Origin: Deltaproteobacteria bacterium
Lineage (GTDB): Bacteria > Desulfobacterota > Binatia > UBA9968
Reading direction: 5' to 3'
DNA: 64,000 nucleotides
Assembly: GCA_016193465.1 (NCBI GenBank)
Contig: JACPSE010000052.1
Coordinates: forward strand, 6,450-70,449
Shown: positions 3,949 through 31,743 of the stretch, piece by piece
How the letters are laid out: every line of letters begins with the position of its first letter
How positions within the stretch are numbered: the stretch's first letter is position 1
Translations under genes and position numbers: made by a program
Notes under the pieces: generated by a model
Seen by the model: the letters and a program-made list of their open reading frames with translations, nothing else
Database searches by the model: none
What the model was told of the DNA's origin: nothing

Positions 3949-3952
3949 AGCG

Positions 3953-16288: not shown

Positions 16289-16864
16289 ATGACTGAGAAG
16301 GAAAAAACCCTTCTTACGGGTTGTCTAAACGGCGACAAGGCAGCCTGGGATGCCTTCGTCCTGCAGTATTCATCTCTCGTCTATCATACAATCAGAAGGA
16401 CCTTCGGTCTTTATCACTCCGACCCTCGCACCGATCTAGTTGAGGACCTTTTTCAGGAAGTTTTTCTCTCGCTTGTCCAAAACGACTTCAAAAAGCTTCG
16501 TCAGTTCAGAGGTGACCGCGGATGCAGTCTGGCGAGTTGGCTCAGGGTTGTTGCGGCAAGACTGACTATCGATTTCTTGAGAAAACAGGGCGCCCCATCT
16601 GTAGAAGTAACTGAGAGCCTTCCCTCCGGCCAGCCTGACCCGCCAGCTTCGCTAATTGATTTTGAAGAAGAGAAGCTGCTTTCCAAAGCCCTGCGAGGCC
16701 TGCCCCCACGGGACCGTCTTTTCCTTGACCTCTCTTATCGCAGAGAGCTCCCGCCAGAAGAGATTGCTGCTATTCTTCAGGTCTCTGTGAGTGCCGTCTA
16801 TACCCAGAAGAGCCGTGTCTTGGCTAAGTTACGAGAAACACTAAGGAAAGCCGCCGCCCTGTAA
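16289..16864 (+). CDS. ECF-family RNA polymerase sigma-70 factor
   Basis: Region 2 (LVEDLFQEVFLSLVQN...FRGDRGCSLASWLRVVAARLTIDFLR) and region 4 (LPPRDRLFLDLSYRRELPPEEIAAILQVSVSAVYTQKSR) hallmarks; ~190 aa. Confidence 0.85.
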   Translation: MTEKEKTLLTGCLNGDKAAWDAFVLQYSSLVYHTIRRTFGLYHSDPRTDLVEDLFQEVFLSLVQNDFKKLRQFRGDRGCSLASWLRVVAARLTIDFLRKQGAPSVEVTESLPSGQPDPPASLIDFEEEKLLSKALRGLPPRDRLFLDLSYRRELPPEEIAAILQVSVSAVYTQKSRVLAKLRETLRKAAAL

Positions 16865-16887
16865 GAAATCCCCGTTCCTCCCGTCTA
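16860..16887 (+). promoter_or_regulatory. ECF-type promoter TGTAAG-N16-CGTCTA (copy A) upstream of small secreted protein gene
   Basis: Motif positions read from sequence; matches B. subtilis sigmaX/W/M-type consensus TGxAAC-N16/17-CGTC; duplicated at 17271-17298. Confidence 0.55.
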
Positions 16888-16930
16888 TTTGGGCAGGAAG
16901 AAAAAATTTCACCCAAAGGAGGAGGGAACT

Positions 16931-17224
16931 ATGAACAAGGCAACGTTTCTTTGTAGTGTGGCTGTACTGAGCCTAGTGGCAGCGTCGGTACGGCCGGCCA
17001 GCGCTGGCGTGGCAGGTGTTGGATGCGCGGTGGAGATGGCAACGGTCGGGGTACCTGGCCGATCCTGCGCGACTGCGATTGTTACTACTGCTGCACCCTA
17101 TGCAGTGGCAACCGGAGCCTGGCTCCGCAACCGTCGGGACGGCTGGACGTACCGTGAAAATCTTGAGGCCGCCCGGAAATACTTGGACCCGTATCGGGGT
17201 TCCAAGACAGTCCGTAGGAGATAG
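16931..17224 (+). CDS. Small secreted hypothetical protein (signal peptide + ~70-aa Ala/Gly/Val-rich mature part, 3 Cys)
   Basis: Start at MNKATF preceded by AAGGAGGAGGG RBS; signal peptide FLCSVAVLSLVAASVRPASA; track ORF start 16889 lies inside 5'UTR. Confidence 0.5.
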   Translation: MNKATFLCSVAVLSLVAASVRPASAGVAGVGCAVEMATVGVPGRSCATAIVTTAAPYAVATGAWLRNRRDGWTYRENLEAARKYLDPYRGSKTVRRR

Positions 17225-17241
17225 CTGGGGGCAGGGGATGG

Positions 17242-17263
17242 CGGACAGAGATCTTTCTCTGTC
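17242..17263 (+). other. Perfect 9-bp-stem hairpin GGACAGAGA-TCTT-TCTCTGTCC between small-protein gene and second ECF promoter
   Basis: Palindrome read directly; no T-tract following. Confidence 0.4.
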
Positions 17264-17270
17264 CGCCGCC

Positions 17271-17298
17271 TGTAAGAAGTCGGCCGGTTTCCCGTCTA
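17271..17298 (+). promoter_or_regulatory. ECF-type promoter TGTAAG-N16-CGTCTA (copy B) upstream of PLA2-like gene
   Basis: ~70-bp unit CCGCCGCC-TGTAAGAA...CCCGTCTATTTGGGCAG..AAGGAGG..ATG shared with copy A. Confidence 0.55.
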
Positions 17299-17337
17299 TT
17301 TGGGCAGAAAGCCAAAATCTCAGTTAAGGAGGGAGCC

Positions 17338-17853
17338 ATGAGAAATCATAGAATTTTTTCTGGAGTTATTGCTTTTAGCATAGGCATCACGTTGCTAATG
17401 CCCCCTAGTGTGGTCAATGCAATAGGGTGGCCTATTTATGGTAATTGGGGAGGGCCTGGTTGGTCAGGCGGCAGCAACGGGAACAAAGCTCCGTGCGATG
17501 TCATGGATGCTGCATTTATGCGCCACGATATCAAGTACGAGCAGGTAAAGGGGCTATGGAGTAGACTGTCGCTGCTTCAAAGGGCCCGCGCTGTTGCTTT
17601 GGCAGACCAGGAACTGGTAAATGAAGTGTCGGCTATAAACCCTGAGACTTTGCGCGTAACATCAAAGTGTAAAGACCTGCCAAAGAGTAAGGGAGTAAGA
17701 AACGATACGATCAATTACTTTAGGCCAAAGGCGAAGCAAAACCAGGAAGTTGCCAGGATGATCCAGACGGGCGAATGTAAAGATGCCGTTGTGAGCCTAT
17801 ATGGCAACTCTGCCTGTATTCGAAAAACCATCGTACTTGGCAAGAGACGATAG
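17338..17853 (+). CDS. Secreted phospholipase A2-like protein (parvovirus VP1u / bacterial PLA2-like motif)
   Basis: Signal peptide ending VVNA; Ca-loop-like YGNWGGPG and catalytic-like D57-AAF-MR-H63-D64-IK-Y67 (DxxAAxxHDxxY). Confidence 0.55.
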   Translation: MRNHRIFSGVIAFSIGITLLMPPSVVNAIGWPIYGNWGGPGWSGGSNGNKAPCDVMDAAFMRHDIKYEQVKGLWSRLSLLQRARAVALADQELVNEVSAINPETLRVTSKCKDLPKSKGVRNDTINYFRPKAKQNQEVARMIQTGECKDAVVSLYGNSACIRKTIVLGKRR

Positions 17854-17919
17854 GAGTCAGGAAAAATAGCCGCCTATGGAAGCAATAAAGAACGGTGTTG
17901 AAAGACAAAAGGGGCAGAT

Positions 17920-19650
17920 ATGCCGAGCATATTAAAATTAGAATTAGATAGGAAAGCCCTTGAGAAGGTTGCGGCAGGCATCTATATGGCTTTTATCCTT
18001 GCCGGCTGCGCCATGCAGCAGATCAGCGGGCCGACAGGGGTGCTTGAAGGAGAGCGGGTTGGCGGAGGGCCTCTAGTTGACTGCCGTGGCTACTTTTCTC
18101 AGGCAGGGCAGGAGATCAAAGCCAGCATTAATGCGCCTCAAGGTCCGGGTCTGGGTCTCGGGTTTGGTTCAACACCTCTGCTCGCCCTTGACTCGATAAC
18201 TGGCGACATGATCTCGCACTACCAGCGCTACTGCCATCAGTACAATGTTGGACTAATCTCGCGCGAAGAGTTTCTCCGAAAGACGGACATGCTCCATGCC
18301 ACACAGACGGCGATCCGGGCAGTGGTGGGTACTGTCCCTCAACCTCTTCCATCACAAGCGTATCCGGTTGCTACGATGCCCGGCATGGGGCCGCCCATGG
18401 ACCCTAATTTTCCTTCCCCATCACTTGGAAGCGCCATGCCAGGAGGTGGCATGCCTGAGGCTACGTCAAAGTCAATGCAGATGGCGGAATCGATCTTTAG
18501 AATGATCCTTGAGGCCATGCGTCTTGCGCCGGGAGTTAGCAGCCCCCCTCAGTTTCCGCCTACGCCGGGGGCCGGTGGTGGGCCGCAGTTTCCGCCGGGT
18601 CCGCGTCCTTCATATCCTCAACCATACCCTCAACCTGGCAGGCCGCCAATGAGTCTCCCGCCCTCTCCCGTTACTTCTTTGCCTCCCTCCTCCGGACAGG
18701 AGGCTAGTCCAGGTCTAGATGGCCTCTTCAGGTCTGTCGTAGACGAGTTGACGCAAATTTCCCGCGTTCAAGGTGGAATGGGCAGGCCGGTTAGAGCAGT
18801 TCTTGGTGAGATCAGTTACAGAAATACCGAATACGGAAGTCCCCTCAGTCTTTTCTTAAAGGAGCGGTTGCGGGAGCAGCTCACTCGCTCGGGTGACTTC
18901 GTTCTGTTAGAGACTCCCAGGCTACGAGGGATCGGAGGTATCAGCAAGCCTAAGGCAGTAACCGCCCTGGCAGAAAGCTCTGGGGCCGATGTCGTCATTA
19001 GCGGGAATTATTGGGATAATCCGGAGGGGATTGACCTGCTCATCTCAATGCGCGAGAGGAGCGAGGATACGCTCCTGGGGGTTTCCCGCTGCTTGCTCCC
19101 ATCTTCTGTGCTTCCCAAGCAGCCTTCGGCTCCGGCTAACCTTGAAGCGGCGCGGTTGAACGAGCTGCTCGAGGAAAGTATTGCCCCACCCTCGGCTGTT
19201 GATCCCGCCAAGCCTTTAAAGGTGGAGGTTTGGACCGACCGAGGGAAAGGCGCCATCTATACTGAGGGAGAAGAGATGTACGTGATGGTTCGTGTCAGCC
19301 AGGATGCTTACGTGCGCCTCTACTATACAGACGCGAACAAGCAGACCTACCAAATTTTTCCGAACAGTTACCGGCCAGAAAGCAGGGTTCAAGGGGGCTC
19401 GGTGCTCACCATACCTAGCCCAGAAGACCGCTTTGCTTTTCGTGTAAAGGCTCCCTTTGGCGTTGAATCTCTTACCGCCCTGGCCAGCCGCAAGCCCTTT
19501 AAAGAGCCAGAAGGAGCTACTCTTTCTACTGGGCCATTTCAGCGGGTTTCTCAAGGTATGAGGGGCATTGCGGTAGTCTCTTCCTCAGTAGGCGAGGGAG
19601 AAGCCGTTCGGGACAGCACTGTGATGACTACAGTATCTCTCAAACGATAA
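17920..19650 (+). CDS. Lipoprotein: Pro-rich linker + TolB-N/LpoB/FlgO-like scaffold domain + C-terminal DUF4384-like beta-sandwich domain
   Basis: Lipobox ILAGC; low-complexity PQFPPTPGAGGGPQFPPGPRPSYPQPYPQPGRPP; VRAVLGEISYRNTEYGSPLSLFLKERLREQL...ADVVISGNYW pattern; C-terminal VEVWTDRGKG..YVRLYYTDANKQTYQIFPN homologous to 21.9-22.2 kb segment. Confidence 0.55.
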   Translation: MPSILKLELDRKALEKVAAGIYMAFILAGCAMQQISGPTGVLEGERVGGGPLVDCRGYFSQAGQEIKASINAPQGPGLGLGFGSTPLLALDSITGDMISHYQRYCHQYNVGLISREEFLRKTDMLHATQTAIRAVVGTVPQPLPSQAYPVATMPGMGPPMDPNFPSPSLGSAMPGGGMPEATSKSMQMAESIFRMILEAMRLAPGVSSPPQFPPTPGAGGGPQFPPGPRPSYPQPYPQPGRPPMSLPPSPVTSLPPSSGQEASPGLDGLFRSVVDELTQISRVQGGMGRPVRAVLGEISYRNTEYGSPLSLFLKERLREQLTRSGDFVLLETPRLRGIGGISKPKAVTALAESSGADVVISGNYWDNPEGIDLLISMRERSEDTLLGVSRCLLPSSVLPKQPSAPANLEAARLNELLEESIAPPSAVDPAKPLKVEVWTDRGKGAIYTEGEEMYVMVRVSQDAYVRLYYTDANKQTYQIFPNSYRPESRVQGGSVLTIPSPEDRFAFRVKAPFGVESLTALASRKPFKEPEGATLSTGPFQRVSQGMRGIAVVSSSVGEGEAVRDSTVMTTVSLKR

Positions 19651-19674
19651 CGCGGCATTTTTTAGGAGGCAGTT

Positions 19675-20379
19675 TTGATTAACCCAGATGAAGAGACAAT
19701 TGAAAGAATTCTCCGGCACTTGCTAAATAAGAAACAGCGAAGCAGGGAAAGAGTCGGTTGTCCCGAAGAGGAAAGTTTGGCTGGCTACCTTAGCGGTACG
19801 CTGTCGGAAAACGAAAGAGAGAAAATAGAGGTCCATCTCGCCGATTGTTCCAGTTGCTTGAACGAGATTGTCACTGTCCATAAGGCGTCGCAGGAAACGA
19901 TGGCGGAAAAGGTCCCCCAAGACCTTATAGAGAGGGCCATGTCTCTGGTTCGGCCGGCTCGTGGACCAGAGAACTTCCTCGATCTTGTAGTGCGGGTCGT
20001 AAAGGGCTCGCTGGAGCTTGTAAGTACCTCGGGCCGCCCGATTTTAGCTGCCGCGCCGGTTGCTGTCCGAGGAGAAAAGGGTCCTGTGGAGAGCGGCGTC
20101 ATCGAAGTCGAGCAGGGGATGGAGAGATTTAAGGTTGGCGTTGAAGTAGAGCCGGTGGAACCAGGACTTTGCCGGGTTGTTGTTAGCGTGACGGAAGAAG
20201 GACGTGGTGTAGGGGAAAGCCTCCGCATGAGCCTATTTTCAGGGGGGCGTGAGCGGGCCTCCTATCTGGCCCGGGAAGGTAAGATAGCATTTGACCGGAT
20301 TCCCCGAGGAGAATACAATCTGGCCATTTCTGATACCGGGATTCCAGTGGGAACGATTCGATTGAGGTTGATCGAGTGA
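19675..20379 (+). CDS. Anti-sigma factor, zinc-finger (ZAS) type, soluble (no TM helix)
   Basis: TTG start 5 nt after AGGAGG; HLADCSSC = H-x3-C-x2-C ZAS motif near N-terminus; located 3 genes downstream of ECF sigma. Confidence 0.6.
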   Translation: MINPDEETIERILRHLLNKKQRSRERVGCPEEESLAGYLSGTLSENEREKIEVHLADCSSCLNEIVTVHKASQETMAEKVPQDLIERAMSLVRPARGPENFLDLVVRVVKGSLELVSTSGRPILAAAPVAVRGEKGPVESGVIEVEQGMERFKVGVEVEPVEPGLCRVVVSVTEEGRGVGESLRMSLFSGGRERASYLAREGKIAFDRIPRGEYNLAISDTGIPVGTIRLRLIE

Positions 20380-20417: not shown

Positions 20418-22394
20418 GTGAGCGACAGAGATCTTGTCCTGGAGGTTTCTCGTGAAGATCAAAGAATAAAGGTTAGTGTTTACGAGAAGACCGAAAGGGG
20501 TGAGCGGACCCTCCGTCCATACGAGGACTCGGAAGTATCCTGGACACAGGTCGAAAAAAGTTGTCAGGAAATTATTGGGCTGCTCAACCGCGCCAATAAA
20601 CGCGCCGGAATCCCGCCGGAAATCTTAGTTGACCTCAAAAAGTCCGGGCAGATCCTTTTTGATCTCTTAATCCCACCCAAAGCAAAAGAAAAACTAAATT
20701 CCACCACGGCCACAAACCTCATCCTTTATTTGGACGATAGGCTGGTCCATATCCCGTGGGAGCTCCTTTTCGGCGGTCGCAATTTCTTCTGCCGCCGCTT
20801 TGCTATGGGCAGGATCGTCAGCACCCGTCAGGCACTCACCTCTTCATCAAGCCGAAGCTTAAAGGCTCCCTTCAAAGTACTAGTCCTAGCCGATCCCCGT
20901 GGGAACCTAGAGGCTTCCTACCGTGAAGGGTTGGATGTAAAAGACTTCCTGGACGACAAGAGGGAAACCTTTCACGTCGATTTCAAAAGCGACCCGATAG
21001 ATATTCCCTTTGTCAAGAAAAATCTCCGCGACTACGACATTGTCCATTATTCGGGTCACGCCGACTATCGGGCGGAAAATCCCTCAGATAGCGGCTGGCT
21101 ATTAAGTGACGGGAGGCTCAGGGCAAGCGAGATTTCCGCTATGGGCGGGCTTCAGCCCATGCCTTTCTTAGTTTTCTCCAACGCCTGCCAAAGCGGCCAG
21201 ACAGGGGAGTGGCAAATCCAAGAAGGGTACGAGCAGCAGATCTTCGGACTTGCCAATGCTTATCTCCTGTCAGGAGTGCAGCACTACATTGGGACTTTTT
21301 GGGAAATTCTTGATGAACCTAGCTGTCAGTTTGCCAAGAGTTTCTACGGTTACTTGGCTCTGGGCGAAAAGGTCGGCGAGGCGGTCCGTAGGGCGCGTGA
21401 GGATCTCATCAAGGCCTACGGAGAGGAGACTATCGTTTGGGCCAGTTATATGCTCTATGGCGACCCGACATTTGAATTTCTTTCTGCCGCCCAGGAAGCT
21501 TCCGAGAAAACAGGAGTACGTGAGTCTACTCCGGCAGAGCAAAGTTCCTCTTTTCTCTATCCACTCCTCGGTGTCTTTTTGCTGGCCTTGGCCATTGCTG
21601 GCTACTTCATCTTCTATCCTAAAGCCTCTCAAGAGGAAGAGGCAAAGACTGAGGCGGTGGAGAAAGTTGAATCCAAACAGCCGGTAACCACGGCAGAAGT
21701 CAAAAAACTTCCAGAGGTTGTAAAACCAAAAGAATCTACCACCATTGCAAAGCCTCAAGAGAGTTTGCCTCCAGCAGAAACGAAACAGGAAGTAGCTTCA
21801 AAAAAAGAGCCTGCTCCGCCTGTAGTTGCTGCACCTCTAAGTCTGAGCATGAACATCATTGGCCAGAGGAAAGAAGCTGATGGTCGTTACGCCGAAGTTG
21901 TGATCGGCGAGGGAAGCATTCTCCGCTCTTATGACAATTTGCAGGTGCACCTAGAGACCAACCGTCCTGCGTACGTGTATATCCTCCTGTACGACAGCCA
22001 GGGTAGAGCCAGCCAGATTTTTCCTGATCCCAAAATTGATCAGGGAGAGTTTGTTGAAGGCGAGAGAAAGATCGTGGTTCCATCTAAGGATCTCTGGTTC
22101 TGGCTGGATGAAAACCCTGGCACAGAAACTATTTATGTGCTGGCCTCCGAAAAACCCATGTCGGATATCAGAGGATTACTTGCGAGAATGGAAGCGACAG
22201 ACGACGCCGGAAAGAAGCGCTTCTCCGAAGAGATCAGGCAGAGAATTGGTGTTATGCAACGTGGCGTTGCCGTTGTCGCCAAGGGCCAACCGGCCGTCTA
22301 TACGTTGAGTGGTGGAAAGAGGATTGAGAAGGTGACCGAGGTGGTCACCGGAACTGGATCAGTGGTGAGGGCGGTAAGTTTTCAGCATAGATAA
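20418..22394 (+). CDS. CHAT-domain (caspase-like) protease – single TM helix – DUF4384-like domain – conserved ~65-aa C-terminal tail
   Basis: CHAT dyad motifs DIVHYSGHADY (His) and FLVFSNACQSG (Cys); TM FLYPLLGVFLLALAIAGYFIFY (~21540-21615); K/E/P-rich linker; AYVYILLYDSQGRASQIFPD DUF4384-like; tail ...GVMQRGVAVVAKGQPAVYTLSGGKRIEKVTEVVTGTGSVVRAVSFQHR. Confidence 0.7.
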   Translation: MSDRDLVLEVSREDQRIKVSVYEKTERGERTLRPYEDSEVSWTQVEKSCQEIIGLLNRANKRAGIPPEILVDLKKSGQILFDLLIPPKAKEKLNSTTATNLILYLDDRLVHIPWELLFGGRNFFCRRFAMGRIVSTRQALTSSSSRSLKAPFKVLVLADPRGNLEASYREGLDVKDFLDDKRETFHVDFKSDPIDIPFVKKNLRDYDIVHYSGHADYRAENPSDSGWLLSDGRLRASEISAMGGLQPMPFLVFSNACQSGQTGEWQIQEGYEQQIFGLANAYLLSGVQHYIGTFWEILDEPSCQFAKSFYGYLALGEKVGEAVRRAREDLIKAYGEETIVWASYMLYGDPTFEFLSAAQEASEKTGVRESTPAEQSSSFLYPLLGVFLLALAIAGYFIFYPKASQEEEAKTEAVEKVESKQPVTTAEVKKLPEVVKPKESTTIAKPQESLPPAETKQEVASKKEPAPPVVAAPLSLSMNIIGQRKEADGRYAEVVIGEGSILRSYDNLQVHLETNRPAYVYILLYDSQGRASQIFPDPKIDQGEFVEGERKIVVPSKDLWFWLDENPGTETIYVLASEKPMSDIRGLLARMEATDDAGKKRFSEEIRQRIGVMQRGVAVVAKGQPAVYTLSGGKRIEKVTEVVTGTGSVVRAVSFQHR

Positions 22395-22465: not shown

Positions 22466-25396
22466 ATGTGGATTTTGTTAGCTGATGTTGCTTTGAGATA
22501 TTTGAGCGCGTTGGGATGTATTCGCGCTCGGAGAGATTTCCTATTGTGCAACACTGTTGTTGCTCTTTTGAGCCTGAGCGGCTGCGTGTTGGGCGATCCC
22601 TATGCCACGGGTAGCAGGACTGCTTCAATAGTACGCGTACGCCATGCGCGCTTTGCACGGGAGCTTCCTCCAACAGGAGGCTCGATTCAAGATGCTGATC
22701 TTCCACCGTCCGTTGAAGAATTTTATAACGACCGCGATTCCCACGTATACTTTCTCTTCGCAATGAACCGTCCATTCAAAAACCTGCCCATACAGATTGA
22801 ATGGTTTGACCCTAATGACCGTTTGTATCAAGCTGATACACGGATTACCGGCTGTGTGCGGTGTTCGTGGTGGTGGACTTCAAGCTTTGTGCGTAGTGAG
22901 AAGGTTGCTGACCGCCTTGGCGAGTGGAAAGTAGTTGTATCCACCAAAGGCGAAACTGTAGGTACCTACAAGTTTAGACTTTTGACCGGGGAGAGAGCCC
23001 AGGCCGAACCTCGTTTCACGAAGAGCTATCCGCTATCCATTCTTGCCGCTGCAGAGACAGTTCGAAAAGGCAGAGGTAGCGAAGCCCTTGCCTACTACGA
23101 GTCTCTTGGGCAGGAATCTATTAAGCTAGGAAAGACTCGTGACGCTGGTTTTGCGTACATACTGGCTGCCACTGTCGCGTTATATAGCGGCAATTTTCAT
23201 ACAGCTGTCAATCACTCCTTGAAGAGTTTGGATATCGTTAGGAACCTAAAAGGTAACCACGAGATCACATACCAGGCTTATTTGAAACTAGTTTTGGCAT
23301 TTCTCGAGATTGGCGAGTTTAACGGTGCGAGGTACTACGCGAATCTTATGATGGGGCTCGCGTCAAGTCATACTGATCTTCAATTTAGGGAAAGGCGCTT
23401 GGCTGATAGCCACTGGTATCTGGCTCGGGTTGATGGAGCGCTTGGGAATCACGAGGGTGCAATTGCAAACCTTCTCAGGGCAAAAGGGATATACGAGAAA
23501 CTAATTGACTGGTCGCGGAAGGGGCGCTTGATCGAGATTTCGAATTATTTCTACACCCTCAGCGCGCTTGGTGAGGCGTACTTAAATCAGGGCAATCTTC
23601 AAGAGGCAAAAATATTTTTTGAGCTTGCTATCGATCCACATAAGATATTAGGGAGACGAGTCGTAACAGTAGTTCCGCGAATAGGACTCGGGCGCATTGC
23701 GATGCTTGAGGGGGACTTGGAGGAGGCTAAATATTATTTTAGGGACGCGTTGCGGCGAAGCCGTCGGACCGGAAGACCTTTCCTTATTGCTCGCGCTCTG
23801 CATGGACTAGGACAAACGTACATGCGCCTTGGTCAATGGAAGGAGGGCGTCTCTTTTCTGAAAGAAGCCGCGAGTTACGTGGAAGATATGAGGTCTTCTC
23901 TGAAGGTTGGGGAACTGAGGCAAACGTTCTTAGAGGGGAGGGTATCAGTTTACCGTGATCTCGTTTTAGCGCTGAGGACCTTAGGGGAAGATTCTGATGC
24001 CTTTCACTACGCTGAGCGAGGAAAGGCTCGCGCCTTCTTGGATGTCCTTGCAGCGAAAGTAGCTTTAGCGGATGACGAAAGGGAATTGCGCGAGAAGCTC
24101 GCTGCGCTCCAATTTATAGAGGAAGACGGTGAGACAGGAGTCTCAGGCGAAGAAGTCGAGGCTACAAAAAGAGCTTACAATGACTTTTTAGCCAAGCTGC
24201 GTGAGGAGAATGCCGAGCGGGCGTCATTGATGACGGTGGACCCGCTTAGTTTGAAAGAAGTGCAAAAGCTGTTGGACGCAAAGCAGATCTTGCTCGAATA
24301 TTTTGTTGCGGATGAGAAAACGTTCCTTTGGGTGGTTGGCAAAGATAGCTTTTATGGCTTAACCATCGCGACCCCTCGCAAAGACCTTGTCGGCAGAGTT
24401 AACTCCCTTAGAAAGCTCACATCCGAAATCGGGTCGTTAAGGGAGTACCAGAGAATAGCGGCTGAGCTTTACGATCTCCTCATCCAACCTGCGTTGCCTT
24501 ATGTTAAAGATAAGGAACTCATCATTGTCCCCCATGAGGTCCTCCATTACGTACCCTTTCAGGCGCTGTACTCGAGTCAGGGTAAATATCTTATTGAAGA
24601 CGCCCCCGTGAGCTACCTCTCTAGCGCCAGTCTACTTCAGTTTGTCAAAGAGAAGAGGAAGGCGAAGGGAGACCTGTCTGCCGTGCTGGCACAAGCAGGG
24701 AAGGTCTTGGCCTTTGGGAATCCAGATTTGGGAGATCCGCAAAAGGACTTGCAGTTTGCGGAGTTAGAGGCAGGAGAGGTCAGGAGGCTTTATCCCAAGT
24801 CCAGTGTGTACGTGAGGAAGGAGGCTACGGAGGAAAAGGCGAAGGGCTTATCATCTCAGTATGACATCCTTCACTTTGCCACCCATGCGGAGCTAAAGGA
24901 GGATGATCCTTTATCATCGGCGGTGCTGTTAGCCAAGAACGGCAAAGAAGATGGGAGACTGGAGGTGAGGGAGGTCTTTGGGATGGATTTGAAGGCTAGT
25001 CTGGTAGTGCTCAGTGCGTGTGAGACCGGGTTAGGGAAGCTGTCTACGGGGGATGAGTTGGTAGGACTGACCAGGGCTTTTATTTATGCTGGGACCCCAT
25101 CTGTGGTGGCGAGTCTGTGGAAGGTGGAGGACAGTTCTACAGCGGCGCTGATGGCCAGTTTTTACAAGAATCTTAAGACCATGACTAAGGTGGAGGCCTT
25201 AAGGCAGGCGCAATTGGAGTTGATACGGGGGCAAGCAAGTAGCGACTTACTGGCGAGGAGAGGAGTAGGAGGGATAGGGAGGCTGGGGGAGGTTCCTACG
25301 GGGGAACCCCAATCCCCGACCCCTGGCCCCGTCTCTATCTCCACCGCTCATCCTTACTTTTGGGCACCGTTTATCTTGGTGGGGGATGGGACATAG
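22466..25396 (+). CDS. TPR-repeat + CHAT-domain protease, lipoprotein (paralog 1)
   Basis: Lipobox LSLSGC; TPR-like helical repeats through middle; C-terminal CHAT with ILHFATHAELKEDDP (His) and VVLSACETG (Cys), ...HPYFWAPFILVGDG end; start codon uncertain (alternative TTG ~22544). Confidence 0.75.
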   Translation: MWILLADVALRYLSALGCIRARRDFLLCNTVVALLSLSGCVLGDPYATGSRTASIVRVRHARFARELPPTGGSIQDADLPPSVEEFYNDRDSHVYFLFAMNRPFKNLPIQIEWFDPNDRLYQADTRITGCVRCSWWWTSSFVRSEKVADRLGEWKVVVSTKGETVGTYKFRLLTGERAQAEPRFTKSYPLSILAAAETVRKGRGSEALAYYESLGQESIKLGKTRDAGFAYILAATVALYSGNFHTAVNHSLKSLDIVRNLKGNHEITYQAYLKLVLAFLEIGEFNGARYYANLMMGLASSHTDLQFRERRLADSHWYLARVDGALGNHEGAIANLLRAKGIYEKLIDWSRKGRLIEISNYFYTLSALGEAYLNQGNLQEAKIFFELAIDPHKILGRRVVTVVPRIGLGRIAMLEGDLEEAKYYFRDALRRSRRTGRPFLIARALHGLGQTYMRLGQWKEGVSFLKEAASYVEDMRSSLKVGELRQTFLEGRVSVYRDLVLALRTLGEDSDAFHYAERGKARAFLDVLAAKVALADDERELREKLAALQFIEEDGETGVSGEEVEATKRAYNDFLAKLREENAERASLMTVDPLSLKEVQKLLDAKQILLEYFVADEKTFLWVVGKDSFYGLTIATPRKDLVGRVNSLRKLTSEIGSLREYQRIAAELYDLLIQPALPYVKDKELIIVPHEVLHYVPFQALYSSQGKYLIEDAPVSYLSSASLLQFVKEKRKAKGDLSAVLAQAGKVLAFGNPDLGDPQKDLQFAELEAGEVRRLYPKSSVYVRKEATEEKAKGLSSQYDILHFATHAELKEDDPLSSAVLLAKNGKEDGRLEVREVFGMDLKASLVVLSACETGLGKLSTGDELVGLTRAFIYAGTPSVVASLWKVEDSSTAALMASFYKNLKTMTKVEALRQAQLELIRGQASSDLLARRGVGGIGRLGEVPTGEPQSPTPGPVSISTAHPYFWAPFILVGDGT

Positions 25397-25432
25397 CAAA
25401 AGGATCGAGACTGGGAGATCCTCGGCGACATC

Positions 25433-28012
25433 ATGAACAGGCTGAGTGAGACAAGAAGATCAAAGAGTAAATATGCTGCCTGGATAACAGCTGTCCTAGC
25501 GCTATTCTTGGCCTCCGGTTGTGCTATCCCCGACCCTAATTTTGAGGTCAGAGAGGGTGCTGTCTTTTATACTCGCCGGGCTCTTTCACGGGGAAAAATT
25601 AAAGAGGCACTGGCTTTTTATGAGTCTGAGGCTCGGACGGCAGAAGAAAACGCGGCGGCTAGTTTCTTTCCTCAACAGTATTGGGATGCTGCAGCTAGGG
25701 CGTACATAGAGGCGGCTAGAGCGGCCCGATTTAATGGGGATTTGCAAAAGTCGATTACCCACGCAAAGAAGGCGCTCGAGGCGGCTGAGAAGGCAAAGAG
25801 CCCCGAGCTTCAAATTGGTGCAATTAGTAATCTCATTTTGCCCTTAAGATCAATCAGGGATTTTGATCAGGTCAGTCCACTGATAGAAAAAGGCTTAAAA
25901 ATTGTAGAGGAAATTCCAACTAACACCAATCGCCGTCTCAGTCGGGAAAGTTCTTTATACGAGCATCTGGGTAAGGATCTTGTTCGTCGGCGAGAATATG
26001 AGCAAGCCATTGTTGCTTTTACCCGCGCTCTTTATTTACAGCAAGACTGGCTGGCTGACCTTTACCGGTGGTTTAGGAAGGACCACCCTTACATAGAAGT
26101 AGCTCGCGTCGGCATTATCCTCAAGATGGAGGCTTTAGGCGATGCCTATCGTCGAGCAGGCCGATTGCAAGACGCACTGCAACAATATGAACGCGCCTTC
26201 AATTTCATAAAAGAGTGGGGATTAAGATATCCTTATGAAAACGCATTGCATCAGGGCATGGGAGAAATCTTTTGGCAGAAGAAGGATTTTCATCAGGCCC
26301 TCGAGCAATTTAACCTAGCCCTAACTTTAGCTGAGAAGCAACAGAGGCCGAACGTGATCAGGTCTGCGAGCCTTCGTATTGCTGACATTTTGGGGCGAAC
26401 GGGCAAGGCTGCCGATGCTATCTCTTACTACCAGAAAGCCATCCAGCAAATCGAGTCTGTCCGCTCTCTCATCACGACTGAGGAATACAGGGGATCCTAT
26501 TTTGCGGGGGGCCTAAGTGCTTACGCCGGTATGACAAGGGCTCTTCTAGACGTAGGTAAGCAAGAGGAGGCCTTTAATTATACTGAGCGCTCACGTTCGC
26601 GGGTCTTCCTGGATGTATTGGGTAGTAAGGTGCAACTGTCGGGAATAAAGGGCGGGCTACTGGCGGAGGAGAGAACTTTAAAGGAGAGGATTGTCTCGAT
26701 CAGGACGAGGTTAGGAGGTCGAGATGGGGAAACAAATGAAGACGGGCAAACGGCGAGGGCGATACTAAGAAGGGAGTTAAGGGAGGCGGAAAGGGCCTAT
26801 GCCGATTTTTTTACTAGGGTCAGGAAGGAAAACAAAGAGCAGGCCTCTTTGATGACAGTTGAGCCTTTGACCGTTAAGGAAGTCCAGGAGTTGCTTGATC
26901 CAGGGGCCACGTTGATTGAGTACTTTGTGACTGAGCGGGAAATCTTTGCCTGGGTTGTCGAGAAAGACAAGGTTCGGTTTGTCAGAGTTGAGCTTCCCAG
27001 AAAGAAGCGTGCTGGCCTGGTTAAGAGCCTGCGGGAGACCATTTTTGCTCTGGGCGATAAGGATAAATTTAGGGTAGCCTCTACTGTTCTCTATCAGCAC
27101 CTCATTGAGGGAATTCTTCCATATGTCACTGGCAAGGAATTAATCATCGTTCCCCACGATGTCCTTCACTACCTTCCATTCCATGCCCTGGTTAGTCCTG
27201 ATGGTCGTTATTTGATCGAGAAGTATCCTATTTACTACCTCTCTAGTGCCAGCCTGCTTCAGTTTACCAAGGAGAAGAGAAAGGCAAAGGGGGACCTGTC
27301 TGCCGTGCTGGCACAGGCAGGGAGGGTTTTGGCCTTTGGGAATCCGGATTTGGGAGATCCTGATAAGGAGTTAAAGTTTGCGGAGTTAGAGGCTCAGGAG
27401 GTTCAGAGACTCTATCCTCAGTCCACCGTGCTTCTGAAGAGGGAGGCCACGGAGGAGAAGGGCAAAACCCTTTCACCGCAGCATGACATACTTCATTTTG
27501 CCACCCATGCGAAGCTGAACGAGGATGATCCGTTATCTTCAGCGATACTCTTAGCCAAGGATGGCACGGAGGATGGGAGGCTGGAGGTAAGAGAGATCTT
27601 CGGAATGGATTTAAAAGCAAATCTGGTAGTTTTAAGTGCCTGTGAGACGGGGTTAGGGAAGCTTTCCACAGGAGATGAGATTGTCGGGTTGACCAGGGCC
27701 TTTATTTATGCAGGCACCCCATCAGTGGTGGCCAGCCTGTGGAAGGTGGAGGATAGTTCTACAGCCTACCTGATGGCCAGCTTTTACAAGAATCTCAGGA
27801 CCATGTCTAAGGTGGAGGCCTTAAGGCAGGCCCAGTTGGAGTTGATCAGGGGACAGGCGAGTAGTGACTTGCTAGCCAGGAGAGGGGTAGGAGGGATAGG
27901 GAGGCTGGGGGAGGTGCCAGAGGCCAAACCCCAATCCCTGGCCCCTGTCTCTGTCTCTACTTCTCACCCCTACTTCTGGGCTCCGTTTATATTGGTGGGA
28001 GATGGGAAGTGA
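25433..28012 (+). CDS. TPR-repeat + CHAT-domain protease, lipoprotein (paralog 2)
   Basis: Classic lipoprotein signal MNRLSETRRSKSKYAAWITAVLALFLASGC; TPR region; CHAT C-terminus ~90% identical to paralogs incl. identical DNA tracts. Confidence 0.8.
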   Translation: MNRLSETRRSKSKYAAWITAVLALFLASGCAIPDPNFEVREGAVFYTRRALSRGKIKEALAFYESEARTAEENAAASFFPQQYWDAAARAYIEAARAARFNGDLQKSITHAKKALEAAEKAKSPELQIGAISNLILPLRSIRDFDQVSPLIEKGLKIVEEIPTNTNRRLSRESSLYEHLGKDLVRRREYEQAIVAFTRALYLQQDWLADLYRWFRKDHPYIEVARVGIILKMEALGDAYRRAGRLQDALQQYERAFNFIKEWGLRYPYENALHQGMGEIFWQKKDFHQALEQFNLALTLAEKQQRPNVIRSASLRIADILGRTGKAADAISYYQKAIQQIESVRSLITTEEYRGSYFAGGLSAYAGMTRALLDVGKQEEAFNYTERSRSRVFLDVLGSKVQLSGIKGGLLAEERTLKERIVSIRTRLGGRDGETNEDGQTARAILRRELREAERAYADFFTRVRKENKEQASLMTVEPLTVKEVQELLDPGATLIEYFVTEREIFAWVVEKDKVRFVRVELPRKKRAGLVKSLRETIFALGDKDKFRVASTVLYQHLIEGILPYVTGKELIIVPHDVLHYLPFHALVSPDGRYLIEKYPIYYLSSASLLQFTKEKRKAKGDLSAVLAQAGRVLAFGNPDLGDPDKELKFAELEAQEVQRLYPQSTVLLKREATEEKGKTLSPQHDILHFATHAKLNEDDPLSSAILLAKDGTEDGRLEVREIFGMDLKANLVVLSACETGLGKLSTGDEIVGLTRAFIYAGTPSVVASLWKVEDSSTAYLMASFYKNLRTMSKVEALRQAQLELIRGQASSDLLARRGVGGIGRLGEVPEAKPQSLAPVSVSTSHPYFWAPFILVGDGK

Positions 28013-28029
28013 TAGTATTGTAACGGCCA

Positions 28030-28497
28030 ATGAGACCTTTGCGAATATATTCTGATACCTCGGTCATCGGCGGATGCTTGGACCGTGAATTTGCCGAGGA
28101 CTCAATGCGCTTTATCAAGGCGGTGGCTAGAGGCCGCTTGGTATTGCTCCTGAGCGAAATCGTCTTGAGAGAACTGGAGGATGCGCCGTCTCGGGTGCGA
28201 GCTTTGCTCACTTCATTACCGAGAGAGGCCGTGGAAAGAGTCGATATAACAGAGGAGGTCCTTGAGCTCCGTGACGCCTATATAAAAGCGAAAATTTTAA
28301 CTGCCCGCTCGGCGAATGATGCTGCCCATGTGGCTGCGGCGACCATCGCGCGGGCTGATGCTATTGTTTCTTGGAACTTCCAACACATTGTCCGCCTGGA
28401 TAAGATGAAGGCTTATAATCGAATCAATCTTCTGCATGGCTATGGAATCTTGACTATCATTTCGCCGAGGGAGGTCTTGGTAGATGAGAAAGAATAA
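28030..28497 (+). CDS. PIN-domain protein (VapC-like putative toxin), no upstream antitoxin
   Basis: LRIYSDTSVIGG N-terminal acidic/ST motif, ANDAAHVAAA, C-terminal D; 155 aa. Confidence 0.55.
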   Translation: MRPLRIYSDTSVIGGCLDREFAEDSMRFIKAVARGRLVLLLSEIVLRELEDAPSRVRALLTSLPREAVERVDITEEVLELRDAYIKAKILTARSANDAAHVAAATIARADAIVSWNFQHIVRLDKMKAYNRINLLHGYGILTIISPREVLVDEKE

Positions 28498-28687
28498 GGG
28501 CAAAAGAGAATTTGACTGTATAGCATTCAAGCGTCAGGCCCAAAGCAAAGTATACGAGGAAACGAAGAATTTGACTTTGGAAGACCAGGTAGCCTACTTC
28601 CGCAAAAAGGCCAATTCAGGTCCACTGGGAAAATGGTGGAAGCGGTTGCCCAGTGCATCGCCTTCTCAGAAACGCAGAACAGGGTAG
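28484..28687 (+). CDS. Small basic hypothetical protein overlapping PIN gene 3' end (possible downstream partner)
   Basis: ORF only; 14-nt overlap with PIN stop; K/R-rich; no recognisable motif. Confidence 0.25.
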   Translation: MRKNKGKREFDCIAFKRQAQSKVYEETKNLTLEDQVAYFRKKANSGPLGKWWKRLPSASPSQKRRTG

Positions 28688-28701
28688 TTTAAAGAGGACT
28701 G

Positions 28702-28923
28702 TTGGGCAAGATGGAGGGCGGAGATGACGCGGGGCAGAAACGCGCATCGCAGGAAATCAAAGAGCGTATCGCCGTCATGCAGCGCGGCGTCGGCGGCGTC
28801 ACCAAAGGCCAGGCGGTGACTTACACGTTGACGGATGGAAAAAAGATCCAGGAGGTGACTGAGGTGGTAACGGGGACGGGATCAGTCGTAAGGGCGGTAA
28901 GTTTCCAGCATAGACAGAGCTAA
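28702..28923 (+). CDS. Standalone copy of the ~65-aa C-terminal tail domain of the CHAT-TM protein
   Basis: DDAGQKRASQEIKERIAVMQRGVGGVTKGQAVTYTLTDGKKIQEVTEVVTGTGSVVRAVSFQHR vs 22195-22391 product DDAGKKRFSEEIRQRIGVMQRGVAVVAKGQPAVYTLSGGKRIEKVTEVVTGTGSVVRAVSFQHR; DNA ~75% identical. Confidence 0.5.
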   Translation: MGKMEGGDDAGQKRASQEIKERIAVMQRGVGGVTKGQAVTYTLTDGKKIQEVTEVVTGTGSVVRAVSFQHRQS

Positions 28924-28941
28924 GCTCCAAGGGGCGGCAAA

Positions 28942-31458
28942 GTGCTCAACCCTAAGCTGAGGGTTTGTTTAATAGCTAGCCTATTGTTTTCGCTGACGTG
29001 GACTTGCGCGCTCCCTCCTGAGCCCAGGTTTGCGCCTAGGGCCTCTTCTACGCAGAAGGCTATCTTGGCTGGCGAGATCAAGGAAGCCTTGGCTTCTTAC
29101 GAAGAGCAGGCCCGAGAGGCCGAAAAGAACGCGGCTGCGAGTTTGTTTCCGCAACCGCACCTGAAGGTTGCTGCGCTGGCCTACAAAGAGGCTGCGAGAG
29201 CGGCCCGGGCTAGCGGACAATTGCAAAAAGGGATTGTTTTTGGCGAGAAGGCTTTGGAGATAGCGGAGAAACTAGGTGAGCCTGGATATAAGCTGGAAGC
29301 GTTGGACGTTCTGATCCCTGCGTATCGCAGTATTCGCAGTTTCTCCAAAGCTAGTAACCTCGTCGAGAAAGGATTCAAAGTTATTGACGAGCTTCCTGCC
29401 TCGAGCATCAATAGGGTCTTTTGGGAAGGCCGTTTACACTTGTTCGTAGGCGGAGACTTCCTGCGTGAGCAACAATACGAGAAGGCTATTCTCGCTTATA
29501 CAAATTCCCTTCGGCTCCAAGAGGCGTATCTAACTGAAATGTACACGAGGACCAGGCGCGATGACGCGTCCATGAAAGCTCACCAGACCGCTGTCTTAGC
29601 GGCCAGATCCAAGCTCGGTGATTCGTATCATCGGTCAGGCCGGTTGGAAGAGGCACTTGAGCAATATCGTTTAGCTCTTGTGCTGATAAAAAAGTGGAAT
29701 CTGCGATCCCCGGTAGAACGGGAACTATATCATGACATTGGTGAAATTTATCTTGAAAGCCAGATGTTCTCGGAGGCCTTGGAATACTTCCGGAGGGCGC
29801 TTGCTCTGGCCGAAAGTCAGAGGAGGCCGGACGCCATAATAGAAACGAGCGGTCGTATCGGTACTGTTCTTCACCAATCTGGTAAGCCCGACGAAGCTAT
29901 TGCATATTTTCAGAGAGCAATTCACTTGGTTGAATCAACTCGCTCGGTCTTACAATCAGAAGAATATAGGCAGTCCTATTTCGGCGGCCCGCATCTGCGC
30001 ATCTACGTCAACCTGACACGTTCCTTTCTGCAATTGGGGAGACCGGACGAGGCTTTTAATTACAATGAAAGGGCGCGCTCACGAGTGTTCCTTGATGTTT
30101 TAGGAAGCAAAGTGCAACTGTCTCGGCTGAAAAGTGGCTTGCTGGAAGAGGAGCGGGCTTTAAATGAGAGGATAGCCGGACTTAAGGCAAGATTACAGGG
30201 TGGAGAAGAGGAGGAGGCAGACAGGGCAGGTTTGAGGAAGGAGCTGAGGGAGGCCGAGCAGGCCTACAATGCTTTTCTTGCCAGGGTCAGGAAACAGGAC
30301 AAGGAGCAGCTCTCCTTGATGACAGTTGAGCCTTTGACCGTTAAGGAAATCCAGGAGTTGCTTGATCCAGGGACCACGTTGATTGAGTACTTTGTTACAC
30401 AGCGGGACATCCTTGTTTGGGTCATTGAGAAAGATACGATGCAGTATCTGAGGGTGCAACTGTCCAGAGAGCAGCTTGCTGGTTTGGTTAGGACTCTACG
30501 GGAGACCATTTTTACCCTAGATGAGAGAGACAAGTTTAGGGTTGCCTCCACTACTCTCTATGACTATCTCATTCATCCACTTCTCCCTCATGTGGGTGGC
30601 AAGGAACTAATCATCGTCCCCCACGATGTTCTTCATTATCTCCCCTTTCATGCCCTGCTCGCCGCTGATGGCCGCTATCTGATCGAGAAGTATCCTATTT
30701 ATTACCTCTCCAGCGCCAGTTTGCTTCAGTTCACCCAGGAGAAGAGGAAGGCGAAGGGGGAGAAGGTCTTGGCCTTTGGTAACCCGGATTTGGGAGATCC
30801 TAAGATGGAGCTTAAGTTTGCTGAGACTGAGGCCAGAGAGATAGCGACGCTTTACCCACAATCTACGGTGCTCGTAAAAAAAGAGGCCACGGAGGAGAAG
30901 GGCAAAACCCTTTCACCGCAGCACGACATTCTCCATTTTGCCACTCATGCGGAGCTTAAGGAGGAAGATCCTTTATCATCGGCTGTGTTATTGGCCAAAG
31001 AAGATAAGGAGGATGGGAGGCTGGAGGTAAAGGAGATCTTCGGCATGGATCTCAAAGCCAACCTTGTAGTTTTAAGTGCCTGTGAGACGGGGTTAGGGAA
31101 GCTTTCCACAGGAGATGAGATTGTCGGGTTGACCAGGGCCTTTATTTATGCAGGCACCCCATCAGTGGTGGCCAGCCTGTGGAAGGTGGAGGACAGCAGC
31201 ACGGCAGCCCTGATGGCCAGCTTTTACAAGAATCTCAGGACCATGTCTAAGGTGGAGGCCTTAAGGCAGGCCCAGTTGGAGTTGATCAGGGGACAAACGA
31301 GCAGTGATTTGCTGGCCAGGAGGGGAGTGGGAGGGATAGGGAAGTTGGGTGAGGTACCTGAAGCTAAACTCCAATCCCCGACCCCTATCCCCGCCTCTAT
31401 TTCCACGTCCCACCCTTACTTCTGGGCCCCGTTCATATTGGTGGGAGATGGGAAATAG
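28942..31458 (+). CDS. TPR-repeat + CHAT-domain protease, secreted/lipoprotein (paralog 3)
   Basis: Signal peptide VCLIASLLFSLTWTC; TPR region; CHAT C-terminus with identical 127-bp and 77-bp tracts vs paralog 2; 9-aa deletion (DLSAVLAQAG) relative to paralogs 1/2. Confidence 0.8.
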   Translation: MLNPKLRVCLIASLLFSLTWTCALPPEPRFAPRASSTQKAILAGEIKEALASYEEQAREAEKNAAASLFPQPHLKVAALAYKEAARAARASGQLQKGIVFGEKALEIAEKLGEPGYKLEALDVLIPAYRSIRSFSKASNLVEKGFKVIDELPASSINRVFWEGRLHLFVGGDFLREQQYEKAILAYTNSLRLQEAYLTEMYTRTRRDDASMKAHQTAVLAARSKLGDSYHRSGRLEEALEQYRLALVLIKKWNLRSPVERELYHDIGEIYLESQMFSEALEYFRRALALAESQRRPDAIIETSGRIGTVLHQSGKPDEAIAYFQRAIHLVESTRSVLQSEEYRQSYFGGPHLRIYVNLTRSFLQLGRPDEAFNYNERARSRVFLDVLGSKVQLSRLKSGLLEEERALNERIAGLKARLQGGEEEEADRAGLRKELREAEQAYNAFLARVRKQDKEQLSLMTVEPLTVKEIQELLDPGTTLIEYFVTQRDILVWVIEKDTMQYLRVQLSREQLAGLVRTLRETIFTLDERDKFRVASTTLYDYLIHPLLPHVGGKELIIVPHDVLHYLPFHALLAADGRYLIEKYPIYYLSSASLLQFTQEKRKAKGEKVLAFGNPDLGDPKMELKFAETEAREIATLYPQSTVLVKKEATEEKGKTLSPQHDILHFATHAELKEEDPLSSAVLLAKEDKEDGRLEVKEIFGMDLKANLVVLSACETGLGKLSTGDEIVGLTRAFIYAGTPSVVASLWKVEDSSTAALMASFYKNLRTMSKVEALRQAQLELIRGQTSSDLLARRGVGGIGKLGEVPEAKLQSPTPIPASISTSHPYFWAPFILVGDGK

Positions 31459-31518: not shown

Positions 31519-31743
31519 ATGGGTCTTGAGCGAATCACTATTAAGCCTGATGTCTGCGGCGGGGAGCCGACAATCCGCGGGATGCGCATTACCGTGAGCC
31601 AGATCCTTGAAATGCTGGCCGGCGGCATGACGACAGAGCAGATTCTGCAGGACTTTCCCTACTTAGACAGGGCCGATGTAGATGCCTGTCTCGAATATGC
31701 AGCGCGGCAAGCGGCGCATCGCGAAGTGCTGTTGAACAAGTGA
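31519..31743 (+). CDS. DUF433-family protein (antitoxin-like partner of DUF5615)
   Basis: IKPDVCGGEPTIRGMRITVSQILEMLAGGMTTEQILQDFPYL motif typical of DUF433; stop overlaps GTG of next gene (GTGA). Confidence 0.7.
   Translation: MGLERITIKPDVCGGEPTIRGMRITVSQILEMLAGGMTTEQILQDFPYLDRADVDACLEYAARQAAHREVLLNK

Follow-up and report, generated by a model that had tools for sequence, protein, structure and literature searches.

A small open reading frame matching the C-terminal tail of a CHAT-TM-DUF4384 protein: a putative selected minigene beside a TPR-CHAT protease gene

The 64,000-nucleotide stretch of a Deltaproteobacteria metagenome-assembled genome (MAG) analyzed here, referred to below as the window, carries a small open reading frame (ORF) at 28702..28923 on the plus strand that amounts to a tail-only minigene, a copy of the C-terminal tail of a larger protein that combines a CHAT protease-like domain, a transmembrane (TM) helix, and a DUF4384 domain (CHAT-TM-DUF4384; gene at 20418-22394). 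The ORF starts with TTG and encodes 73 aa, while an alternative ATG at 28711 would yield 70 aa (P0001 and P0002, respectively, in our searches), and the 73-aa product is listed by NCBI as the hypothetical protein HYY45_04705, in agreement with the first-pass annotation of this DNA. Comparisons with related loci make a small functional protein linked to the neighboring caspase-like protease genes more probable than a dead remnant. As these comparisons show, the last ~80 codons of a CHAT-TM-DUF4384 gene were copied, cut at the 5′ side, and joined to a toxin–antitoxin (TA)-like module (PIN/orf67), with the resulting fragment keeping its position directly upstream of a TPR-CHAT (tetratricopeptide repeat-CHAT) lipoprotein gene. 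Approximately 60 equivalent fragments in the TPR-CHAT arrays of related bacteria are, by sequence comparison, likewise under purifying selection, above all in their last 33 codons. The reading that we favor, to which we assign a probability of roughly 45%, is that the ORF is a selected tail-only minigene encoding a putative small protein that mimics the full-length tail toward a CHAT-protease partner.

As had been claimed, the ORF is genuinely homologous to the end of the 20418-22394 gene, at a level well above chance. In a tblastn comparison of the 658-aa protein with the window, residues 585-658 aligned to 28693-28914 without gaps and with 53/74 identities (E=2.5e-27). The homologous stretch (28693..28914, plus strand; 74 codons), which is also supported by codon-position differences and by an AlphaFold2 model, corresponds to 22170-22391, the last 74 codons of the full-length gene, whose tail with its stop codon spans 22170..22394 (plus strand). 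At the DNA level, blastn aligned 28722-28914 with 22199-22391 at 72.5% over 193 nt, and identity reached 70% over all 222 nt, so that the earlier estimate of about 75% has to be lowered to ~70–72%. The "handful" of substitutions initially reported for the last ~65 residues is in fact 18 of 65. The final 19 residues common to the two proteins, TEVVTGTGSVVRAVSFQHR, are identical, which bears out the reported likeness of their ends, but the ORF does not stop at ...QHR; two extra codons, CAG AGC (QS), and a TAA follow (28915..28923, plus strand), lying past the stop position of nearly all other copies. Since the ancestral stop position was lost, the window ORF runs on by QS, where ~95% of the copies carry no extra 3′ codons at all. 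On the other side, the homology reaches three codons before the TTG, to a point right after an in-frame TAA (28690-28692); this junction (28688..28701, plus strand) also holds AGAGGA, a Shine–Dalgarno (SD)-like motif (28693-98). Upstream of 28693, a sensitive tblastn search (word size 2) of the full-length protein against 27900-29100 detected no homology in any frame, and the ORF itself contains neither a frameshift nor an internal stop. Frameshifted homologous sequence upstream, the hallmark of decay named in advance by the first-pass annotation, is thus absent, and the ORF does not show the stop-broken homology beyond its limits expected of a decaying pseudogene.

The window fragment is not a recent duplicate of the neighboring gene's tail, because synonymous sites are saturated and the fragment lies nearer to the family consensus than the neighbor does. 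Specifically, the two differ at 13, 14, and 39 sites at codon positions 1, 2, and 3 (proportion of synonymous differences, pS, 0.73; of non-synonymous differences, pN, 0.16), and the fragment matches the consensus at 55/59 positions, compared with 43/59 for the tail of the window's own full-length gene. The 73-aa ORF has no Pfam match and hence is not itself a DUF4384 domain (PF14326), which occupies residues 506-580 of the full-length protein and is followed by the tail (585-658). By its 53/74 identities and 55/59 consensus matches, the ORF belongs to an unnamed C-terminal tail module of ~80 residues after DUF4384, in which R25, the G of QRG, R61, and H67 are invariant in A1/A3.

Equivalent fragments form a family. 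A word-indexed search with the peptide retrieved 109 database homologs, all of 46–115 aa, and the search for the module as a family, proposed in the first-pass annotation, succeeded insofar as an exhaustive profile search of 1.84 billion representative proteins returned only 128 clusters, about half of them short ORFs and the rest long proteins with the tail at the extreme C-terminus. Eighty-nine related loci (L001-L003; nine loci from Syntrophobacter sp., Ca. Binatia, and deltaproteobacterial MAGs; and 77 metagenome loci), most of them retrieved via exact peptide patterns within the conserved core, were scanned by tblastn, the query being the C-terminal 200 residues of one full-length homolog (q1-q200, with the tail at q120-200). 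The scan yielded ~40 full-length tails and ~60 5′-truncated fragments, whose 3′ end is fixed (q200 plus stop) and whose 5′ breakpoints fall anywhere between q95 and q178, clustering around q155, q138, and q120-132. The fragments sit in same-orientation arrays of tandem TPR-CHAT lipoprotein genes, five of them within 17 kb in L003, and typically end 7–35 nt before the next TPR-CHAT start. The window ORF fits this arrangement, since its stop lies 18 nt from the GTG start of TPR-CHAT paralog 3 (28942..31458, plus strand; exported, with a signal peptide), immediately downstream as first described. Where the sequence upstream of a TPR-CHAT gene could be read, it held a fragment in 26 cases and a full-length tail in 19, while ~10 genes, including window paralog 2, had neither. 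The left neighbor of a fragment is either the stop of the previous TPR-CHAT gene or a TA-like module of 620–730 nt. These modules belong to three or more unrelated types, namely the window's PIN/orf67, vapBC on the minus strand, and DUF7718/DUF5647, and in the scanned loci none was seen to separate a fragment from the TPR-CHAT gene that follows it. Some short database proteins of the family, such as P0016 and P0007, were rejected as true fragments, being pieces of near-full-length genes that single frameshifts split on long-read ENA contigs (L001 7634-8231, L002 7604-8204, and L057 9627-10207). The splits may reflect assembly error or real pseudogenes.

Fragments that have a common junction, and hence descend from an already truncated copy, provided the key test of selection. 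Three such classes were compared. In class J1 (L008, L072, L078, and L021, with variants in L067, L011, and L003), the stop of a TPR-CHAT gene is followed by one nucleotide and then by the ATG of MQRGV (...GGGAAATAA-C-ATGCAG...). Class J2 (vapBC|tail) is represented by at least six loci; its long ORFs, which might pass for fusions of the tail to an upstream protein, were rejected as antisense read-through of the minus-strand vapBC. The window's own class, J3 (orf67|tail), comprises the window, L020, and L022, together with a remnant in L013 and an eroded form in L054/55. Non-synonymous change lagged far behind synonymous change in J1 (pS 0.49, pN 0.08) and in J2, where the tail (pS 0.47, pN 0.10, ratio 0.22) behaved much like the adjacent vapC (0.53 and 0.13, ratio 0.25), while in J3 the pN/pS ratio was 0.20 for orf67, 0.165 for tail codons q139-167, and 0.085 for q168-200. 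Six independent J1/J2 pairs together showed 93 synonymous and 57 non-synonymous differences, against a neutral expectation of 74% non-synonymous (p=2.5e-20), distributed over the codon positions as 30:26:94. A neutral pattern (pN ~ pS) since truncation was therefore rejected on the ratios of 0.085–0.22 in the junction-sharing classes, with the proviso that detection favors conserved copies. The window and L020 have in common the whole block of orf67, fragment, TPR-CHAT, and DUF433, and across this block the fragment (74 codons; 29 synonymous and 13 non-synonymous differences; pS 0.53, pN 0.08) resembles orf67 (0.35 and 0.05) and DUF433 (0.61 and 0.08), with the TPR-CHAT N-terminus at 0.71 and 0.38. 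These codon comparisons indicate that the fragment lineage has been under purifying selection since its junction formed, a circumstance that favors a functional peptide over a decaying relic. Regarding the first-pass suggestion of a relic of recombination, the origin holds, in that a truncated copy was joined to PIN/orf67, while decay is not favored.

The constraint is concentrated at the 3′ end. The strongest constraint in all fragment classes falls on a 33-codon core, VTYTLTDGKKIQEVTEVVTGTGSVVRAVSFQHR (28816..28914, plus strand), and in the six J1/J2 pairs the pN/pS ratio was 0.68 over the first 11 codons and 0.11 over the last 33. When long fragments were compared with full-length genes, the ratios were 0.50 versus 0.35 at q133-154, 0.45 versus 0.23 at q155-167, and 0.10 versus 0.12 at q168-200; the last 33 codons are thus equally constrained in fragments and complete genes, with the remainder of the fragment relaxed. 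Across all pairs and the common 45 codons, pN/pS amounted to 0.134 for full-length tails and 0.226 for fragments, and between nearest neighbors to 0.11 and 0.15, respectively. When the test was repeated on the 27 unique copies found by tblastn alone, and not by peptide pattern, ~19 were intact (at least 29/33 identical to the consensus), and the 19 alignable copies, degraded ones included, gave a core pN/pS of 0.16 and codon-position differences of 545:556:2219. Gene conversion was rejected as the source of this conservation, given that copies within one locus or MAG differ at pS 0.3–0.77, although these MAGs are incomplete. A private-codon test of non-synonymous to synonymous changes gave no information because synonymous codon space is exhausted. 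Overall, we regard the selection signal on the fragments, as read from their codons, as solid and surprising.

Structure prediction provides a view of what the conserved segment might represent. The C-terminal 189 residues of the full-length protein, modeled by AlphaFold2 from a 45-sequence alignment, gave a confident structure (predicted local distance difference test score, pLDDT, 90; predicted template-modeling score, pTM, 0.87) that comprises the DUF4384 β-sandwich, two helices, and three long strands. On this model, the window ORF takes in helix 2 and all three strands as well as the end of helix 1, homologs of the 46-aa class cover the three strands, and the 33-codon core covers the end of strand 1 together with strands 2 and 3. 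The fragment alone, with a shallow alignment, gave no confident fold (pLDDT 54, pTM 0.27). A tail that is confidently predicted in context and not alone would fit folding on a partner. Searches of the PDB, both by fold and by sequence, and of Pfam, NCBIfam, and PADLOC returned no relatives of the peptide. As to a role in anti-phage defense, the ORF has no match among the PADLOC models, and the CHAT proteins have just weak TPR/BovA-like matches. Likewise, nothing in Pfam, NCBIfam, or PADLOC identifies the ORF as a type II TA component, and the TA-like modules beside the fragments vary both in family, with three or more unrelated ones represented, and in orientation, some fragments having no such neighbor. 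The tail contains an internal 13-codon repeat, seen in the window as a direct repeat of 26 nt with a spacing of 39 nt at 28809-28873 (QAVTYTLTDG / QEVTEVVTGTG), and its β-strands look like a duplicated 13-residue unit. In a few homologs (P0218, P0221, and P0285), CHAT, DUF4384, and the tail are followed by a trypsin-like domain (Trypsin_2), a fused tail–protease order.

Under the favored reading, a peptide of 70–73 aa without an export signal would be translated from TTG 28702 or ATG 28711, carrying the helix and three-stranded β-meander that normally end the periplasmic DUF4384 module. Not folding alone, it would mimic the full-length tail and probably bind that tail's partner, most plausibly a conserved surface of a CHAT protease or a DUF4384 domain, and it could serve as a decoy, adaptor, or inhibitor made alongside the neighboring protease genes. 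A conserved surface such as the CHAT domain is suggested because the core is near-invariant while the adjacent TPR halves are hypervariable. Three further considerations lead us to favor mimicry: one group among the Csx30 proteins, which the TPR-CHAT protease Csx29 takes as substrates, has a DUF4384 C-terminal domain (CTD) (10.1101/2022.08.17.504292), some homologs carry the tail directly before a fused protease domain, and intact cores persist where no TPR-CHAT gene follows. As for translation, the AGAGGA motif ahead of the two possible starts gives SD hybrid energies of -5.8/-5.9 kcal/mol, compared with -7.2 kcal/mol for TPR-CHAT 3, and several real genes are weaker than the window ORF; the TTG is kept in L020 and L022, while ATG 28711 is not.

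Several observations weigh against this reading. Starts and SD motifs are not conserved across the fragments, some copies lack a usable start for more than ~33 codons, and the window copy lost the ancestral stop (+QS). The peptide is devoid of a hydrophobic segment and of a signal peptide, whereas a periplasmic location is expected both for the full-length tail, which follows a TM helix, and for the TPR-CHAT proteins, whose N-termini are signal or lipoprotein peptides; lacking an export signal, the free peptide would therefore reside in a different compartment from its mature partners. Its partner and effect we infer entirely. The evidence of selection also has its limits, since only recognizably conserved fragments are detectable, which biases pN downward. 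About 8 of the 27 pattern-independent copies are degraded by stops, frameshifts, or 3′ truncations, and positions that are at least 90% conserved in full-length tails deviate 3.4 times more often in fragments (4.7% vs 1.4%, p=1e-5). Constraint is therefore somewhat weaker in the fragments, and some copies are being lost.

Much of this is what would be expected if the ORF were a non-functional relic, namely the leftover 3′ end of a second CHAT-TM-DUF4384 gene that was wrecked by deletion or TA insertion and is slowly decaying, its protein-like conservation either inherited from the working gene or renewed by recombination with unsampled full-length copies. A continuum of 5′ breakpoints behind a fixed 3′ end, progressive erosion at orthologous array ends, the missing start and SD conservation, the relaxed constraint upstream of the last 33 codons (0.45–0.68), the excess of deviations at conserved positions, the ~30% of copies that are degraded, the lost stop, the missing export signal, the lack of an independent fold, and the donors that incomplete MAGs could conceal all speak for such a relic. 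The erosion is seen where L037 (4927), L075 (961), and L012 (1298) have the same right array boundary, made up of a fragment, a conserved 108-nt spacer, and an unrelated gene of 483 aa, with breakpoints at q122, q150, and q171, respectively, as in the stepwise 5′ erosion of one orthologous fragment. Against it stand the J1, J2, and J3 fragments, which with common junctions and flanks show pS of 0.35–0.65 and pN of 0.05–0.10, equal to vapC, orf67, and DUF433; neutral drift over that distance would leave ~40% identity and several indels. Furthermore, no close donor exists within any locus or MAG, and the surrounding TPR-CHAT paralogs are themselves ancient (pS 0.3–0.9), the array being therefore neither young nor of fast turnover. 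We consequently hold a mere relic to be unlikely.

Another explanation keeps the selection and moves the function from the peptide to its translation: as a cis-acting leader ORF, the last ~33 codons up to the stop would, when translated, control or enable the downstream protease gene through coupling or a nascent peptide, in full-length and fragment context alike. It would account for a constrained unit of just these C-terminal codons with the same strength in full-length genes and fragments, for the conserved stop position and short spacer (7–35 nt) to the TPR-CHAT start, for TA modules solely upstream of the fragment and never between it and the downstream gene, and for the tolerance of a variable N-terminus. 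However, no stable or conserved RNA structure ties the tail's 3′ end to the downstream ribosome-binding site (RBS): the window gave z -0.81 and 48 loci a mean z of -0.19, with about half of the RBS bases paired, the same as in shuffled sequences, and an RNA switch or RBS-sequestering hairpin was accordingly rejected. Intact cores also occur without a TPR-CHAT gene after them, as in L003 (tail_d, before a TA module), L037 (before an unrelated gene), and L014 (before a destroyed TPR-CHAT), and the ~10 TPR-CHAT genes without an upstream tail, window paralog 2 among them, dispense with such a leader. In addition, the core residues form a confident β-sheet in the model and are conserved where a protease domain is fused behind them. 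A leader is thus less likely than mimicry and, in our estimate, improbable. Programmed frameshifting or readthrough joining the tail to the upstream gene was likewise discarded, as the fragments lie in varying frames relative to the upstream TPR-CHAT, and in the window, a deletion of 7 nt destroys the in-frame TAG|tail arrangement that L020 and L013 display. An ECF (extracytoplasmic function)-type promoter within the tail was also dismissed, the GTAAC-N15-CGTAA match of the window copy not being conserved at the DNA level elsewhere.

Very improbable is a role as a recombination or cassette boundary, in which the repeated tail would act as a region of homology or att-like site for inserting, excising, or swapping TPR-CHAT/TA cassettes behind a full-length gene. 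In its favor, tail pieces take turns with TPR-CHAT genes, all in the same orientation, TA modules are interspersed as in cassette arrays, and the TA module of L038/L031 lies between a complete tail and a fragment, the pattern that integration into the tail would produce. On the other side, copies from one locus share just 70–85% identity with scattered synonymous differences and are hence poor substrates for homologous recombination, conservation lies at the amino-acid and not the DNA level with synonymous sites varying freely, no inverted-repeat or attC-like structure occurs in or around the ORF, no recombinase domain was found among the array genes scanned at ~16–34 kb (a 171-aa ORF at 17338-17853 has no Pfam match), and the majority of TA modules adjoin a tail piece on a single side. 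The idea that TA cassettes entered the tail by homologous integration was rejected separately, as most TA modules are flanked by the tail on the right side only.

At the level of the locus, gene content makes the craspase module and DdvA/DdvS the closest known systems. In craspase (Csx29-Csx30-Csx31-RpoE of type III-E CRISPR), as here, a TPR-CHAT protease is linked to an ECF sigma factor and to a protein with a DUF4384 CTD. The window differs in lacking CRISPR, in TPR-CHAT proteins whose signal or lipoprotein peptides would place them in the periplasm, and in a DUF4384 carrier that is itself a CHAT-TM protein; furthermore, tail-only mini-ORFs are not described for craspase. In DdvA/DdvS, a periplasmic TPR-CHAT module operates within an ECF sigma/anti-sigma signaling locus (PMC11506125), again as in the window. 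There, however, the TPR-CHAT is part of the anti-sigma factor, whereas the window's lies in separate tandem lipoprotein genes, and DdvA has neither a DUF4384 tail nor small ORFs.

Other comparisons concern the fragment itself. Orphan C-terminal modules downstream of rhs and cdiA genes consist of variable toxin tips with immunity genes and have common homology at their 5′ side. As 5′-truncated, same-orientation pieces downstream of a full-length gene with a stretch of homology, they resemble the fragments; the window piece, however, represents the invariant far end of the protein, comes with neither a variable part nor an immunity gene, and is itself under purifying selection. Small cytoplasmic inhibitors are encoded beside secreted cysteine proteases, as with Spi/SpeB and the staphostatins, and eukaryotic "microProteins" resemble part of a larger protein. 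The window peptide would similarly be a small protein that resembles part of a larger one, is encoded beside a protease gene, and could occupy a binding site, and its lack of an export signal would fit a cytoplasmic guard. Here, however, the tail derives from a protein other than the adjacent protease, and it has no relation in sequence or fold to those inhibitors. Regulatory leader or arrest peptides such as SecM, MifM, and VemP have in common with the fragments a conserved C-terminal peptide whose coding sequence stops just short of the gene for an exported protein, by a few nucleotides; the window differs in having no RBS-sequestering structure, in a segment that the model assigns to a domain's β-sheet, and in cores that persist without a downstream TPR-CHAT.

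A limited literature search found no description of tail-only ORFs, of selection on them, or of TPR-CHAT arrays with tail fragments and TA modules. Gene fragments left by rearrangement are usually dismissed as junk; here, a 5′-truncated family keeps its coding pattern over deep divergence, always within arrays whose exported, caspase/separase-like TPR-CHAT proteases are genetically linked to an ECF sigma factor, which is a caution for annotation pipelines that drop ORFs of this kind as bits of pseudogenes. Should the peptides be made, they would represent a bacterial case of fragment-derived small proteins regulating protease signaling, and they could offer a handle on what the DUF4384 tail binds, on partner recognition by non-CRISPR TPR-CHAT proteins, and on why protease genes expand into arrays studded with TA modules. 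A bolder and, on balance, doubtful proposal is that the tail-only ORFs are bacterial microProteins, fragments shed from the CHAT-TM-DUF4384 protein and selected, one per TPR-CHAT gene in TA-stabilized arrays, which would tune or guard a periplasmic caspase-like protease/ECF-sigma pathway by mimicking the docking tail of that membrane protein.

Between the stop of TPR-CHAT 2 (28012) and the fragment, a pair of plus-strand genes is inserted, consisting of a toxin-like PIN_3-domain gene (28030..28497; PF13470, 2.7e-7), of which L006 has a 90% identical copy, and its 67-aa partner orf67 (28484..28687), which overlaps it by 14 nt and has no Pfam, NCBIfam, or PADLOC match. The two (28030-28687) look like a TA-like pair with the toxin-like gene first. 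The pair, or orf67 by itself, is found again directly upstream of tail fragments in L020, L019/21/22, and L054/55, and also at an array end in L006. In related loci, the orf67 stop abuts the tail fragment, and the ancestral junction can be written orf67-TAG|TTTGAAGATATCCGGGGACTG, relative to which the window carries the 7-nt deletion. In L013 (8040-8230), an orf67 homolog is followed by just 14 tail codons (FEDIRGLFARMEAA), which are fused to the end of a TPR-CHAT gene at its 3′ side; this recombination scar is evidence that the arrays do undergo rearrangement. Elsewhere, a minus-strand vapBC lies between a TPR-CHAT stop and the fragment in at least eight loci (L011, at 3368-4101; L038, L066, L014, L069, L076, L074, and L053), where the vapB start overlaps the 5′ end of the fragment, so that the vapBC promoter probably lies within the fragment's relaxed part. 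With at least three kinds interleaved, the TA modules in these repeat-rich arrays recall TA-stabilized cassette arrays.

The three TPR-CHAT genes of the window lie in a wider array whose upstream operon context (16289-20379) is made up of an ECF sigma factor (16289-16864), a proline-rich DUF4384 protein of 576 aa with a divergent tail of its own (17920-19650), and a zf-HC2 anti-sigma-like protein (19675-20379). With CHAT-TM-DUF4384, the DUF4384 proteins of the window number two. Downstream of TPR-CHAT 3 lies a gene of the antitoxin-like DUF433 family (31519-31743), which has no obvious adjoining partner gene in the window and which recurs after a TPR-CHAT gene in ~10 related loci at 81–95% identity. 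The annotated N-terminus of TPR-CHAT 1 (22466-22600) has a twin-arginine-like RARRDFLL ahead of the lipobox LSLSGC, the RR motif being missing in the other paralogs. In their divergence, TPR-CHAT 1-3 (22466-31458) are mosaic, with C-terminal CHAT halves at pN 0.05–0.13 and N-terminal TPR halves at pN 0.33–0.66, near pS, which suggests that the TPR part of these paralogs diversifies rapidly.

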